Assembly: GCA_048939015.1 (NCBI GenBank)
Contig: JBHLPW010000008.1
Location: 18,497 to 82,496 of the forward strand
Direction of reading: 5' to 3'
Source: Promethearchaeota archaeon
Lineage (GTDB): Archaea > Asgardarchaeota > Lokiarchaeia > Sigyniarchaeales > SOKP01
Length of the DNA: 64,000 nucleotides
Positions 42,638 through 48,340 of the stretch are shown here, piece by piece. The notes beneath the pieces are model-generated. The model saw nothing but the letters and a program-made list of their open reading frames with translations. It was not told the DNA's origin and made no database searches. The position numbers and the translations under genes were made by a program. Within the stretch, counting starts at the first letter, position 1, and the number at the start of each line of letters is the position of its first letter.

Positions 42638-43612
42638 TTATACTAAGTTTTTGTAATTTTTTGCTATACACCTAATATGATGATGGTTTGTGCCACAGCA
42701 TCCCCCAAGAATTTGCATTTTAAAAGTTAAGAATAATTTAATCATTTTTTTAGCCCACGTTTTTGGATTTTCAGATAACGCTTTATTTATTATGTTCAAC
42801 TCCTCAGGACTCTTCGTTGAACCATTTCCTTGCAATCCTTTAAGTCGTGTTTGAACTAATTCTGTATTATTAGGCTCAGTATTGATCGCACTTAGACAAG
42901 TAGTAGGATGTACACAATTAACCATATATAAAATTGGTTTTGGTGCAACTGAATTATCAATAGTCGAAATTGCCTTATAAAGAGATGTACCATCAAGTAT
43001 AGTTCCGTCTGGACGAATAACAAAACTTATTATATACTCACAGCCAGATTCTGCCATCGCTTTGGCTATACCGAGTGCCTCTGAAAAAGCAGGTAATGTG
43101 CTAGCTAATAGAAAGTCTACTCCAGCACTATTTAACTCTTTTACTTGGACCTGATGAAAGTGATATGCCTCTTCACTTGATAATGCTTCTTTAGGATTAT
43201 ACGCATCTCCTTTACATCCCATCAATCCTCCTATCAAGGATGTTGCACCTTTAAGGCTAAAGTGCCTTCTTATCTGATCTAAAAAATTGAAACAGTCAAC
43301 ATTCACATCCTTATCTTTGTACTCTGCTAATTCAATACGTTCTGGATTAGTACGCCAAGTGGGTGTTAGATTGAGAATTGGTATCTCATATTTATATGCT
43401 ATAGACATATATTGGCTATAAATTTTTTTGAGAATATTCCTGCCTTTAACATCATATACCATAGAGGCATTTTGAATGAAAGGATTTAATTTATATTTGA
43501 ATTCGTGTTTTATTCTTTCGATTACAGGTCCTTCAGCTAGTACTAATGGATTTTCTAGAATTATATCCTTTAATGACATCTTCGAATCAAAATCTCTAAA
43601 ATATTTCAACAT
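42638..43612 (-). CDS. Homocysteine S-methyltransferase family protein
   Basis: TPTWR, GDAY, GVDFL, VNCVHP, ILGGCCGT...HI; ATG43579 is an alternative start. Confidence 0.88.
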   Translation of the reverse strand: MLKYFRDFDSKMSLKDIILENPLVLAEGPVIERIKHEFKYKLNPFIQNASMVYDVKGRNILKKIYSQYMSIAYKYEIPILNLTPTWRTNPERIELAEYKDKDVNVDCFNFLDQIRRHFSLKGATSLIGGLMGCKGDAYNPKEALSSEEAYHFHQVQVKELNSAGVDFLLASTLPAFSEALGIAKAMAESGCEYIISFVIRPDGTILDGTSLYKAISTIDNSVAPKPILYMVNCVHPTTCLSAINTEPNNTELVQTRLKGLQGNGSTKSPEELNIINKALSENPKTWAKKMIKLFLTFKMQILGGCCGTNHHHIRCIAKNYKNLV

Positions 43613-43649: not shown

Positions 43650-46600
43650 TTAAGCCTCGGGTAATAGAATTACAAAAGAATCTCCTTCGACCCATATTTT
43701 TCCATTGTAATTATTTAATACTCGTTCGACTAAAAGAAATCCTAAAATTATTTCTTTAATTTTACTGTCCTTTTCTCTCTCTTTTTGGAATATCAATTCT
43801 TTTCCTATATTTAAAATTTCTTTCTGATAATCAATAATTTTTACCTTTACATAATTCATGTCATCAATTTGATTTCTAACGATAATAATTTTAATTTCAA
43901 TTGTTGGATTTTTATTATATCTAATGGAACTGATAAGGATATTCACAAAAACATCTATTAAAAATTTATCAGCTTTTACAAAAAGATCTTCAAATGGGTG
44001 TTCGACAGTTATTCTAATTGTTTTATTGGAATAGCTGTTTGTAATAAATTCTTTAACATCATCAATTACATCATATAAATTTACAGGCTCAATTATGACA
44101 TTTGTTTCACTAATCATAGTTAATTTTTGGATTATATATATTAGAAGTTGACCATTTATGCATTGATCTTTAATAGAATCCAATATTTTTCTTTTAGGAC
44201 TTAAGATAATTTGATGATCCTGCTCGTTATATTCATCTACCGATCCTTGAATGTTCTTAATTATAGAACTTATATCTTTTATGAATAATTCTTTATAAAA
44301 ATACTCTCTATCTAATTCTTGGTGCATATATTCTTCACTTATGCGTAAGTTTTCTTCAGCTGACATACGGAGCATCACATTTTTAAAAATCTCTGAAATT
44401 ATGGTTAAAATTTCTAAATTCTCTTCGATCCAATAATTATGATCTGATATATTATCAAAACAGACTATTGCTTCTAAAATCCCATTGATTTTTATTGAAA
44501 ATGTTAGAAAGTTGTTCACTTTGTGATTCGTAAGAAAGTACTTTAAATTAACAGCTTCTCTAGGAAGCTCATCTACGTTTTTTACATAAAAATAATCAAA
44601 TTCTTTAAATTTCTCTATTAACCATGGAAAATTATTAATGTCTATACTTTCGGGTAAATTTAATTGGGGAAGAATTAACTTGCGAGACCAGGTATAATTT
44701 CCTTTAGTGAAACTAAAATTAATATTAAATATGTAAAGATATGCTCGTGTTGCTTTAATGAATTCACCGAGTTCTTTAAGTGAATCAATTATAGCTTCTT
44801 CAAATTTATGTATACCAACAAATCTAGAAATAATTTCAGCAATGATTGCTTTTAGTCTAGAAATTTTCTTTAGTTCCTCCTCTAACTTCTTCTGCTCTGT
44901 GATATTCTGACAAATAATTTGATAAAATGTCTCATCACCAATATCGACTAAAGATGATTGCAGATTTACCCAAATTAAATCACCATTTTTCTTATAAAGC
45001 TTAATTTCTAATGGAGAGAAAATTTTATCTCGTTCTTGCCTTTTCAGTCTTTCGAGAACATCCATTAGATTATCTTTGTGTATTAATGAAAGATCTACAA
45101 ATTTCCTTCCCATTAATTCATCTCTTGTATATTCTAGTGTTTCCTCTAAAACAGGATTAAAATCAACTAAATATCCCGCAGAGTCAATCAAAAGAATAGA
45201 AAAGGGTGAATCTTCAAAAAGATGACGGTATTTTATTTCAGAATGCTTTAACTTGACTTCTGCTTCTATTCTCTCGCTAATATTCCTAATAATATATTGA
45301 ATTAAGATTTGTCCACCCATCTGTACTTCGTTAAAACTAATTTCCACAGGAATTAAATTACCAGAACTATCAATAACCTCTAATCTTAAGGGAAATGGAT
45401 AATTAACCTGATCGAATACTTCCTCATTAAAATCGATATCAATTATATCACTTAATATTTGGCTTGAATGCAATCCAATAAAATCTTCAAATGGCCGTTG
45501 AAATAAAATCTCAGCCTCCTTATTAGCATCCATTATTATTCCGGAGTTCTTATCAATAATTAAAATGGCATCTCGAGCGGCTTTAAATAATGTCTCATAA
45601 TGTAATTCAGCTATTTTAAGAGCTTCAATTGCAGGTCGATATAGATCAATTTGATTATTTATTGTATTATGAATAATTTTAAGGATATAATTTATTTGAT
45701 CTTTATTTAAATAGTTCTTTTTTATTTCATCAAGATACTGAAGTATAGTGGAACTAAATTGGTTGATTATATTTTTAGGAATCTTTTCATTATAATAAAT
45801 TATTAAAGATAATGGTAATATCCCACCTCTAATACTCTCATTTGAAACATAATCGAAATAGATTGCTGCATTTGAATTTAAGTGAGGGAATGGAAGAATT
45901 ACAAAAGTTGGCTTAAACTCATCTCCTCCAAAAATAAATTGCGATATTGAGAAACTTTTAACAGATATCAATTCTGGATCATCAAATGCATCTTTGGGAT
46001 AAACAGCTTCTACTTTAAGACCAAGATTTTCATCCCAATGACTAAAAATTATGCTAACTTCACTTCTGGGTGTATAATGATCAATTCTTTCTGCAATTTT
46101 TAGCGAAAGCCAATTAAAAGCCTCATCAATATTTATGTTTTTAATCCCGCTTGTCAGATATGATTTCATTGGTCTCCTTGTGAGTTTCTTAACACCCATA
46201 GCTTCATCTAATTCATTTATATCTGGTTGTTTTAAATCAATTTTATTGTAAAGAATAAGAAGGGGCAGTTCCCATAATTCTGGTATCCCTGCAATTTCAT
46301 GCAATAATTCACGCGCAAATGAAAATTTAATTCTATCAGTTACATCTAAAACAAAAATTAATCCATCTTGATTTTTAAGATAAGGCTTCCACAGTTGTTT
46401 TGCTTTATATTTTCCAGGAATATCATATGTTAACAACGATACATTATTAACTAAAATTCTAGAAATGTCCACATTTATTGTTGGAAATGTTGTTTTTGAT
46501 ACTGATTTCCTTCGCGTTTTAATTATTGTAGATTTTCCTGCCATCGTTAGACCGAAAATTAATATTTTTGCCTCCTTTTGTTCAAATATAATTTCTTGCT

Positions 46601-47042
46601 CAGGAAAAGATGTATGAAAGGTTTCGAGTAATATTCTTATCTCCTCGAGCTTTGCAGAATCTCCGTTATAAATTCTAGAGTTCACATAAAACCCTTTAAA
46701 TGCATCTTTGATTTTTTTGAACTCTTCGACAAATCCTTCTAAAAACTCTTCAACTAAAGCAGAATTAATTTTGGATTTACCATCAATAACTAATGAGATT
46801 AAAAGGCGCTCCTCTTTCGTTCTTGAATATTCACTTGGAATTTTGAAAATTAAATTAGCGGTTTTAAAAGTTCCAAATGTATGTTTAAAAAATCCTTTTT
46901 CATAGAGATCTATTAACAATGGTACTTGTTTAATATCATCTCTTTGAATAGTTTCAGGCATTTTTAAAAAAATATATGGAGGAAAATATGGATTCCGATG
47001 ACTTAAAACTAACATTCTCAAATTAAAACAACCTCTTTTCAC
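43650..47042 (-). CDS. Multidomain protein: longin/uDENN-like, Arf-like small GTPase, longin/uDENN-like, PAS, PAS, GAF, pseudo-histidine kinase
   Basis: G1 GLTMAGKS (aa164-171), G2 PT188, G3 DIPG, G4 NKID, G5 TSG; two PAS domains ending RNISER and QNITEQK; GAF with RAYLYIF/CFDN; degenerate H/N/G boxes; likely start TTG47021 after GAGG. Confidence 0.85.
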   Translation of the reverse strand: MKRGCFNLRMLVLSHRNPYFPPYIFLKMPETIQRDDIKQVPLLIDLYEKGFFKHTFGTFKTANLIFKIPSEYSRTKEERLLISLVIDGKSKINSALVEEFLEGFVEEFKKIKDAFKGFYVNSRIYNGDSAKLEEIRILLETFHTSFPEQEIIFEQKEAKILIFGLTMAGKSTIIKTRRKSVSKTTFPTINVDISRILVNNVSLLTYDIPGKYKAKQLWKPYLKNQDGLIFVLDVTDRIKFSFARELLHEIAGIPELWELPLLILYNKIDLKQPDINELDEAMGVKKLTRRPMKSYLTSGIKNINIDEAFNWLSLKIAERIDHYTPRSEVSIIFSHWDENLGLKVEAVYPKDAFDDPELISVKSFSISQFIFGGDEFKPTFVILPFPHLNSNAAIYFDYVSNESIRGGILPLSLIIYYNEKIPKNIINQFSSTILQYLDEIKKNYLNKDQINYILKIIHNTINNQIDLYRPAIEALKIAELHYETLFKAARDAILIIDKNSGIIMDANKEAEILFQRPFEDFIGLHSSQILSDIIDIDFNEEVFDQVNYPFPLRLEVIDSSGNLIPVEISFNEVQMGGQILIQYIIRNISERIEAEVKLKHSEIKYRHLFEDSPFSILLIDSAGYLVDFNPVLEETLEYTRDELMGRKFVDLSLIHKDNLMDVLERLKRQERDKIFSPLEIKLYKKNGDLIWVNLQSSLVDIGDETFYQIICQNITEQKKLEEELKKISRLKAIIAEIISRFVGIHKFEEAIIDSLKELGEFIKATRAYLYIFNINFSFTKGNYTWSRKLILPQLNLPESIDINNFPWLIEKFKEFDYFYVKNVDELPREAVNLKYFLTNHKVNNFLTFSIKINGILEAIVCFDNISDHNYWIEENLEILTIISEIFKNVMLRMSAEENLRISEEYMHQELDREYFYKELFIKDISSIIKNIQGSVDEYNEQDHQIILSPKRKILDSIKDQCINGQLLIYIIQKLTMISETNVIIEPVNLYDVIDDVKEFITNSYSNKTIRITVEHPFEDLFVKADKFLIDVFVNILISSIRYNKNPTIEIKIIIVRNQIDDMNYVKVKIIDYQKEILNIGKELIFQKEREKDSKIKEIILGFLLVERVLNNYNGKIWVEGDSFVILLPEA

Positions 47043-47383: not shown

Positions 47384-48340
47384 ATGGAATTTGTAGAAAT
47401 TGCTAATGATGTATATGCCTGCTTGCAGGAAGATAGAGGGTTAGGATGGAATAATGGTGGCTTCGTGAATCTTGATGGAGGGTTAGTTATTGATACATAT
47501 TATGATTTGAACCTAACAAGAGAGATGATTGAGTTTTATAAAACTGTATCACCTTCTGGGACTCATCCAAGAAGACTTGTAAATACTCATCACAATGGTG
47601 ATCATACTTGGGGTAATCAGTTATTTAAAGATGGTGAGATTATTGCCCATCGTCTTTGTGCTAAAGCAATGGAAAAAGAAAGAAAAGGTCATTATCCAGG
47701 GATATTCAATATGTGGATACAAAAACCTGAAACTACTCCACCTGAAATGAAACAATTTGCTGCAGCTTTAAGTCAGTTTGACATTTCGGAAATTGAAATT
47801 ACACTCCCGAATCACTTAATCGAAGATAAATTAGACCTTGAACTTGAAGGATATCCCTGCCAACTTATCTATGTAGGTCCAGCACACACTCCAGGAGATT
47901 TAATCGTCTATCTCCCCGAACATAAAGTTATATTTGCTGGTGATATTGTCTTTTGTGAATGCACTCCAATAGGTTGGGAAGGAATCCACAATAAATGGAT
48001 TGAAGCACTAGATCTCCTCGTATCTCTTAAGCCCGAGGTAATTGTTCCAGGACATGGACCTCTCTGTGGTATTGATGAAGCAAAAGAATTAAAGTCTTAT
48101 TTTGAGTTTGTATATTCGGAGGCTAAGCGGTTCTATGATGAAGGACTCGATCCACTCGAAGCATCGAAAAAGATCAATCTTGGACCTTATGCTGACTGGA
48201 CTGAGCCCGAGCGCTTATACTTTAATGTATTTAGAGCCTATAGAGAGTTCAAGATGGAAAAATCTTGGAAAGCCCCTCTTAAAGCCTCTGATCTCTTCGG
48301 TAATTGTATTGAATTACGAAAATACTGGGATAGTCTCTAA
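47384..48340 (+). CDS. MBL-fold metallo-hydrolase (cyclase-like)
   Basis: NTHHNGDHTWGN, AHTPGD, FAGD, VPGHG. Confidence 0.9.
   Translation: MEFVEIANDVYACLQEDRGLGWNNGGFVNLDGGLVIDTYYDLNLTREMIEFYKTVSPSGTHPRRLVNTHHNGDHTWGNQLFKDGEIIAHRLCAKAMEKERKGHYPGIFNMWIQKPETTPPEMKQFAAALSQFDISEIEITLPNHLIEDKLDLELEGYPCQLIYVGPAHTPGDLIVYLPEHKVIFAGDIVFCECTPIGWEGIHNKWIEALDLLVSLKPEVIVPGHGPLCGIDEAKELKSYFEFVYSEAKRFYDEGLDPLEASKKINLGPYADWTEPERLYFNVFRAYREFKMEKSWKAPLKASDLFGNCIELRKYWDSL

Follow-up and report, generated by a model that had tools for sequence, protein, structure and literature searches.

The closest described systems are eukaryotic GTPase-activating proteins (GAPs) in which two longin domains are combined with an Arf- or Rag-type GTPase, namely C9orf72-SMCR8 (Arf GAP), FLCN-FNIP2 (RagC/D GAP), and the NPRL2-NPRL3 pair of GATOR1 (RagA/B GAP). 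A GP motif lies beside the arginine finger in FLCN, NPRL2, SMCR8, and C9orf72 but is missing from FNIP2 and NPRL3 and from longins that are not GAPs, such as adaptins, TRAPP subunits, and DENND proteins; in C9orf72 the residues W33-D34 and G38-P39 are essential or conserved (PMC12290439). That 2025 study does not settle if Asgard longins with the GP motif act as GAPs, or if they partner with ArfR or Rag GTPases. Three Asgard studies describe longins joined to Rag/Arf-like GTPases, including a longin-G-roadblock protein in MK-D1 (Tran et al. 2024, PMC10933270), NPRL2-like longins joined to domains of two-component systems (Liu et al., bioRxiv 10.1101/2020.10.19.343400), and Arf proteins that carry a longin at the N-terminus (Zhu et al. 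2025, PMC11914678). A literature search found no paper combining Asgard, GTPase, histidine kinase, and longin. Here, a gene at 43650..47021 on the minus strand of a 64,000-nucleotide stretch from a Promethearchaeota archaeon (contig JBHLPW010000008.1 of assembly GCA_048939015.1; the whole stretch is called the window) was analysed, and on balance it appears to encode a multidomain Asgard signalling protein. Read from the N-terminus, an FLCN/NPRL2-type longin and an Arf-family GTPase are followed by another longin, homologous to the first, and then by two PAS domains, a further segment, and a degenerate histidine-kinase-like end. What is new here is a clade with a derived, invariant lysine (Lys204) at the catalytic Gln position of the GTPase and a shift in evolutionary rate at Arg67 of the first longin; longin-GTPase and NPRL2-like-longin/two-component fusions were already published. 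The window protein shares their phylum, building blocks, and idea, and neither the Gln-to-Lys clade nor the covariation of Arg67 and Gln204 is mentioned in the main text of the Liu, Tran, and Zhu papers.

Like the eukaryotic pairs, the window protein sets two longins with an Arf/Rag-type GTPase, and its family has the GP before beta2 and the Arg in the neighbouring loop that are found in FLCN, NPRL2, and SMCR8. The WDxxxG[P] spacing of its C-terminal longin (C-longin) matches W33-D34...G38-P39 of C9orf72. Unlike in the eukaryotic pairs, longins and GTPase share a single chain, the longin is not followed by a DENN or other C-terminal domain, the GP is PP, the Arg is probably unconstrained, and the target Gln is Lys. 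Compared with Asgard ArfR/AArf proteins (e.g., HodArfR1, PDB 8oul), a longin takes the place of the N-terminal amphipathic helix, and the G3 motif is DxPGQ in the family and DIPGK in the window protein instead of DxGGQ. Rag/Gtr and Loki Rag-like proteins (PDB 8yl2, 9m28) also have a GTPase followed by a C-terminal domain of the longin/roadblock superfamily, probably for pairing, but the domain in the window has longin and not roadblock topology in the AlphaFold2 (AF2) model, and the G domain matches Arf with a better score than Rag (Pfam Gtr1_RagA 15.7 bits, cut-off 22).

Fused longin and Arf-type GTPase domains

Residues are numbered throughout from the TTG start at 47021. The gene and the features of its first three domains are as follows.

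43650..47021, minus strand: whole gene, 1123 aa from the TTG start, with the stop codon at 43650-43652.
46602..47021, minus strand: N-terminal longin (N-longin), aa 1-140, FLCN/NPRL2-like, beta-beta-alpha-beta-beta-beta-alpha plus two helices.
46977..46982, minus strand: Pro14-Pro15 directly before beta2, at the site of the family GP motif (G in 62/74 and P in 73/74 family members).
46821..46823, minus strand: Arg67 in the beta4-beta5 loop, the arginine of the family "ARG" and a candidate arginine finger (codon checked).
46080..46586, minus strand: Arf-family GTPase domain (Pfam Arf), aa 146-314, with P-loop GLTMAGKS, switch I Thr181, NKID, and TSG intact.
46410..46424, minus strand: G3/switch II motif DIPGK, from the alignment to Arf1 (translation checked).
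46410-46412, minus strand: Lys204 codon AAA at the catalytic Gln position.
45606..46064, minus strand: C-longin, aa 320-472, beta-beta-alpha-beta-beta-beta-alpha plus a long helical hairpin.
46020..46037, minus strand: WDENLG, aa 329-334, in which W-D ends beta1 and G starts beta2.
45822..45830, minus strand: Arg398-Gly-Gly in the C-longin beta4-beta5 loop, aligned with Arg67.

The whole protein scored 118.8 bits against Pfam Arf and aa 1-473 scored 121.1 bits (cut-off 22.3). Motifs G1, G2, G4, and G5 of the Arf family are present and conserved. The catalytic Gln of DxxGQ is missing from the window protein (DIPGK), and no N-terminal amphipathic helix was found; a 140-residue longin and a disordered linker precede the G domain. 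HMMER placed "ydipgkykakqlwkpyl" opposite "wdvggqdkirplwrhyf" of Arf1, and because this alignment sets DIPGK on DVGGQ, G3 is DIPGK with Lys204 at the catalytic Gln. The replacement of the switch II Gln by Lys had been proposed from the letters alone (the sequence-only reading), and it is borne out by the Arf1 alignment with coordinates checked.

Besides Arf, Pfam matches on the protein were limited to two PAS domains and a sub-threshold HATPase_c, with no match in aa 1-145 or 315-475. Neither Pfam (applied to the protein and to sets of 86 and 7 relatives) nor NCBIfam recognised a longin in either flank by sequence, a PDB profile search with the N-domain alignment recognised none, and BLASTP between the two flanks gave no similarity (E 0.30). 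Alignment of the two flank profiles, cut from an 86-sequence family alignment, with hhalign gave a probability of 87.5% and E 3.6e-6 over 103 columns, in a register that sets [F/R][D/N]xxx[G/P]P with WDxxxG[L/P] in the beta1-beta2 loop and Arg67 with Arg398. In the AF2 models (aa 1-473: predicted local distance difference test [pLDDT] 87.5, predicted template modelling score [pTM] 0.57; aa 1-142: pLDDT 94.1, pTM 0.89), both flanks have the beta-beta-alpha-beta-beta-beta-alpha order of a longin, and Arg67 and Arg398 lie in the beta4-beta5 loop, which by topology adjoins the beta1-beta2 loop. The two flanks share common ancestry and the longin fold, so the duplicated longin-like flanks around the GTPase described in the sequence-only reading hold. 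Its uDENN assignment does not, as no DENN core and no Pfam match to DENN/uDENN was found.

In the Foldseek search, GATOR1 chains were at the top (E 6e-6 to 3e-5, 18-20% identity). The comparison with NPRL2, FLCN, DENND, and Mon1/Ccz1 that had been suggested together with the fold assignment thus put the GAP subunits first: the nearest eukaryotic folds to the N-longin were NPRL2/GATOR1 and FLCN, and also Lst4 and C9orf72-SMCR8, with Mon1-Ccz1 and DENND lower. By its closest structural neighbours, the N-longin is therefore of the GAP type. The GP before beta2 is absent from the window protein, which has PP in the N-longin and GL in the C-longin; GP occurs in 5/33 C-longins of the family. The "hairpin-P...RG" pattern by which the duplication had been noticed is strongest in relatives (GP and ARG); the window N domain reads R-N-x3-P-P and S-R-T. 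An ESM-Atlas language-model lookup, a lead only, placed both flanks near one Promethearchaeota cluster in which 19% of members have Pfam NPR2.

Residues 67 and 204 in the orthologues

An exhaustive profile search returned 525 representatives at E<1e-30, in three forms: longin-Arf (~315 aa, many), longin-Arf-longin (~470 aa), and longin-Arf-longin with PAS/kinase modules (700-2300 aa). The named homologues were all Asgard (Lokiarchaeia/Promethearchaeota, and metagenome-assembled genomes [MAGs] labelled Thor, Hermod, Hod, Odin, and Heimdall). In the family, the N-longin has [F]-D-x3-G-P before beta2 (G 62/74, P 73/74) and the beta4-beta5 Arg in 71/81, and the C-longin has W-D-x3-G-[L/I/V/P] (W 33/34, D 25/34, G 32/33) and R-G-G (R 28/34).

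A tree of 79 orthologues of the ~1120-aa group was used for residues 67 and 204. Lys204 is invariant in 53 orthologues over a tree span of 5.2 substitutions/site, and Gln is found at this site in 25 outgroup or nested orthologues. The Gln-to-Lys replacement maps to a single change, behind nodes with 0.95-1.0 support, and the Lys clade is nested among Gln-bearing orthologues; one Lys-to-Gln reversal (P0225/P0228) is nested inside the Lys clade, and P0030 has a separate Gln-to-Tyr change. Judged from this tree, Lys204 does not characterise the family as a whole: it is derived, and it is fixed in one Loki-type clade inside a Gln-bearing family. The Lys-type sequences (n=53) all have G157, G162, K163, T181, D200, G203, N259, and K260, with D or E at 262; with these residues retained, the window protein almost certainly still binds guanine nucleotide. 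Outside this group, the longin-Arf paralogues P0058, P0065, P0073, P0075, and P0077 (~315 aa) have D-L-P-x-K as G3, with the Gly lost and Lys at the Gln position, and therefore Lys at this position arose more than once in the wider family. The longins of these five still carry GP and the Arg.

By parsimony, site 67 had 0 changes on Gln-background branches (5.49 substitutions/site) and 15, to K, N, G, and T, on Lys-background branches (5.21). The binomial chance of all 15 falling on the Lys side is ~2e-5, assuming that changes are proportional to tree length. This is the largest such shift of the 1123 sites, the second-best site having 7 changes. In P0030, the Q-to-Y change at 204 coincides with R-to-L at 67, and the reversal P0225/P0228 (K to Q) has Arg at 67 while neighbouring sequences carry Lys or Asn. 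Among the genus orthologues, codon 204 is always AAA and codon 67 is AGA, AAA, AAG, AGT, GGT, or GGA (R/K/S/G), and the Arg67 of the window itself is therefore probably an unconstrained variant. The functional link between the longin arginine and the GTPase Gln is thus backed by a site-specific evolutionary rate shift, which points to a built-in, GAP-like Arg/Gln partnership in Gln-type relatives that would have been lost or replaced in the window protein. Across the whole family, a contingency of GP/Arg against an intact GQ showed no coupling, with 22 sequences keeping GP and Arg beside a degenerate G3; the coupling claim is therefore limited to the ~1120-aa orthologous group.

The C-longin motifs are kept on both backgrounds. 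Among Gln- and Lys-type orthologues (n=78), the W is present in 77/78 and the D and G in 78/78, and W329, D330, G334, R398, G399, and G400 are each invariant or altered in <=2 of the 53 Lys-type sequences. Arg398 is kept in the Gln and Lys lineages and is lost in 5/5 longin-Arf-longin relatives with a grossly degenerate G domain. The ratio of nonsynonymous to synonymous substitution rates (dN/dS) over 8 genus species was 0.17 for the N-longin, 0.10 for Arf, and 0.12 for the C-longin, which indicates that purifying selection acts on all three domains. An orthologue of >=76% identity with an open frame of 1123-1153 aa was found in 10/18 other genus genomes searched, and >50 metagenomic orthologues have full-length open frames.

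Proposed mechanism and alternatives

We lean towards a reading in which the Gln-type relatives have a built-in longin GAP and the window protein is a long-lived GTP-state module with a dead kinase end. In the Gln-type relatives, the fused GTPase would be regulated by a platform built from the two longins, to which the C-longin would contribute the partner half. Arg67 of the N-longin and the switch II Gln would hydrolyse GTP together, as a built-in arginine-finger GAP like FLCN, NPRL2, and SMCR8, whose fingers are R164, R78, and R147, respectively; it would act within one chain or across a dimer. In the lineage of the window, where the GP was already PP, Gln204 changed to a fixed Lys, Arg67 was freed, and the nucleotide-binding residues were kept. 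The window protein would then bind guanine nucleotide, would have dropped the canonical Gln/Arg-finger route, and would hydrolyse GTP slowly, most likely serving as a long-lived GTP-state module with a conformation tied to the PAS sensors and with output via the GTPase/longin surface instead of phosphotransfer. In Ras, Q61K impairs both intrinsic and GAP-stimulated hydrolysis, and the long-lived GTP state is expected because of this analogy. A more specific form of this reading, that the Gln-type relatives are self-contained longin-GAP/Arf switches with Arg67 as the finger and that the Lys lineage locks the GTP state or replaces the finger in cis, is held only tentatively. The built-in GEF/GAP function proposed in the sequence-only reading survives in part. 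The rate shift at Arg67 provides the GAP link and fits the Gln-type relatives; in the Lys clade, the GAP signature of the N-longin has decayed (GP to PP, Arg67 free), and a built-in GAP therefore suits the Gln-type relatives better. The guanine nucleotide exchange factor (GEF) part has no specific support.

Several points weigh against this reading. The Gln-to-Lys replacement is essentially one event, and a clade effect could account for some of the rate shift: over the entire N-longin, there is 1.44-fold more change on Lys branches. That Lys204 is strictly invariant hints at a positive role and not a mere loss. The 22 paralogues with GP, Arg, and a dead G3 indicate that the Arg also has a role independent of a competent GTPase in cis. 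The relative placement of the domains, including an intramolecular pairing of the longins and the reach of Arg67 into the nucleotide pocket in cis, is uncertain in the AF2 model (pTM 0.57). Finally, Pfam NPR2 (PF06218) and Folliculin (PF11704) had no match to the window protein or its relatives, and genome-wide scans with these two models miss this gene. A profile search for standalone N-type longins found ~190-aa Promethearchaeota proteins, none with an NPR2 Pfam label, and there is therefore no sequence bridge to NPRL2 for the equivalence of the arginines.

Among the alternatives, the one that survives best, although we consider it unlikely, is that the longins provide no more than a platform for dimerisation or scaffolding, without catalysis, like the Rag C-terminal roadblock domains or MglB; pairing of longins within or between chains would hold the GTPase on a sensor dimer, and Lys204 would mark a pseudo-switch. 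Longin and roadblock domains are described as generic dimeric GTPase platforms (PMC10933270), and a dimeric Loki longin is the best match among solved structures. The survival of GP and Arg in paralogues with dead G domains and the retention of the C-longin motifs under Gln or Lys alike also fit such a platform. It leaves unexplained, however, why Arg67 is the sole site of 1123 that is freed where Gln204 goes and why Arg is back where Gln returns, and it does not account for a GP and Arg signature in the family that has been reported for GAP longins.

Lys204 could instead be an active substitute that supplies in cis the positive charge of the longin finger, for a non-canonical, GAP-independent GTP hydrolysis. 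The invariance of Lys204 in 53 orthologues over a long tree, where a pure loss should drift, speaks for this, as do the dispensability of Arg67 from the same point on and the retention of all nucleotide-binding residues. The Q61K change in Ras has the opposite effect on hydrolysis, distant paralogues with Lys at the Gln position keep Arg67, and we know of no precedent for a catalytic Lys at the switch II Gln position; this alternative is judged improbable. Still less probable is a longin pair that works as a built-in exchange factor of the TRAPP, Mon1-Ccz1, or DENN type, since GAP-type longins outrank all GEF-type longins in the fold search, the GP motif carried by the family is reported absent from TRAPP and DENND longins, and the covariation involves the hydrolytic Gln and not exchange determinants. 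A decaying relic, in which the catalytic residues (Gln, GP, His, and Asn) drift off, would explain why several catalytic signatures are gone together but is largely refuted by the dN/dS of 0.10-0.17 per domain, the full-length frames in the genus genomes and metagenomes, and the invariant or nearly invariant Lys204 and C-longin WD...G...RGG.

For the preferred reading of a built-in longin GAP in Gln-type relatives, the value of the family is that it joins GP-motif longins to an Arf-type GTPase, and an Arg67 that is invariant, inside the ~1120-aa orthologous group, only with the catalytic Gln is evidence, at the level of sequence, for an archaeal partnership of longin Arg and GTPase Gln. If true, the longin-GAP mechanism would be older than eukaryotes, and an Asgard longin-GAP would be wired to bacterial-type PAS sensor modules and not to membranes. 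The Gln-type relatives would then be the prokaryotic counterpart, on a single chain, of C9orf72-SMCR8:Arf and would reveal the GTPase targets of GP-motif Asgard longins. Matched natural Gln-type and Lys-type proteins of ~470 residues are suited to GTPase assays and structures.

Gene start, sensor modules, neighbourhood, and further relatives

The open reading frame as listed spans 43650-47042 on the minus strand, and the upstream GTG at 47042 would give 1130 aa. The window sequence at 47021 is TTG-AGA-ATG, with a Shine-Dalgarno-like AGAGGT ~10 nt upstream. Homologues begin with MRxLxLSH, and two genus orthologues (L002/L003) have ATG at the TTG codon. Because of the homologue N-termini, the ATG in L002/L003, and the upstream AGAGGT, translation most likely begins with the TTG at 47021, which gives a protein of 1123 aa. 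The public gene call P0218 (1103 aa) begins at Met21, as do the calls for many orthologues; this start skips 46962-47021 (minus strand) and removes beta1 and the GP-motif loop of the N-longin. The GC content of the window is ~30%. The features downstream of the C-longin are as follows.

44889..45599, minus strand: two PAS domains, ~aa 475-711 (Pfam PAS_9/PAS/PAS_8; NCBIfam sensory_box 111 bits).
44325-44888, minus strand: segment of ~aa 712-899 between the second PAS domain and the kinase end, with no Pfam or NCBIfam assignment.
43653..44324, minus strand: degenerate histidine-kinase end, ~aa 900-1123 (HATPase_c 25.1 bits, cut-off 26.4).

The end of the protein lacks the marks of a sensor histidine kinase: there is no acceptor His and no N-box Asn, HATPase_c is sub-threshold, and Pfam HisKA had no match in the window protein. 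The H-box position is Lys915 and the position of the N-box Asn is Ser1031. The H-box reads LFIKD in the window and LFAHD/LFIHD in P0013/P0030/P0031, and most orthologues have Asn at the His position. The kinase end is degenerate throughout the ~1120-aa orthologous group, and the deeper relatives P0013, P0030, and P0031 retain the His. A sequence search found no PDB relative of this end. Without the acceptor His and the N-box Asn, phosphotransfer output is unlikely.

A homocysteine S-methyltransferase gene (42638-43612, minus strand) lies 37 nt downstream on the same strand, and a metallo-beta-lactamase (MBL)-fold hydrolase gene (47384-48340, plus strand) is divergent; the latter was absent from the available upstream flanks of 7 orthologous loci. 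These two and the other genes around it, one of them for a carboxylesterase, have metabolic functions, and no response regulator is adjacent to the gene.

The genome of the window holds nine N-type longin copies. The eight besides that of the window have open frames of 171-554 aa and are of the GP/Arg type (G000:C70:30762-31253, C94:16993-17436, C82:13574-13957, C2:2711-3100, C85:53831-54256, C21:144822-145385, C118:12299-12706, and C116:33819-34175); they are candidate trans-acting partners or paralogous switches. A standalone Promethearchaeota family of ~190 aa (P0141, P0151, P0153, P0166, and P0185), some members of which are on contigs >48 kb, consists of an N-type longin and a short tail with only a P-loop-like "LSxxGK" GTPase stub. 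A second longin-Arf-longin-PAS paralogue was not found in the genome of the window (94.9% complete). It is present in three genus genomes (G002:C18:69875-71281, G013:C32:28856-30268, and G007:C190:3236-4648), with open frames of 946-968 aa that are 47-51% identical to aa 2-473 of the window protein, and it is like the Gln-type P0029 (959 aa) in length and divergence.

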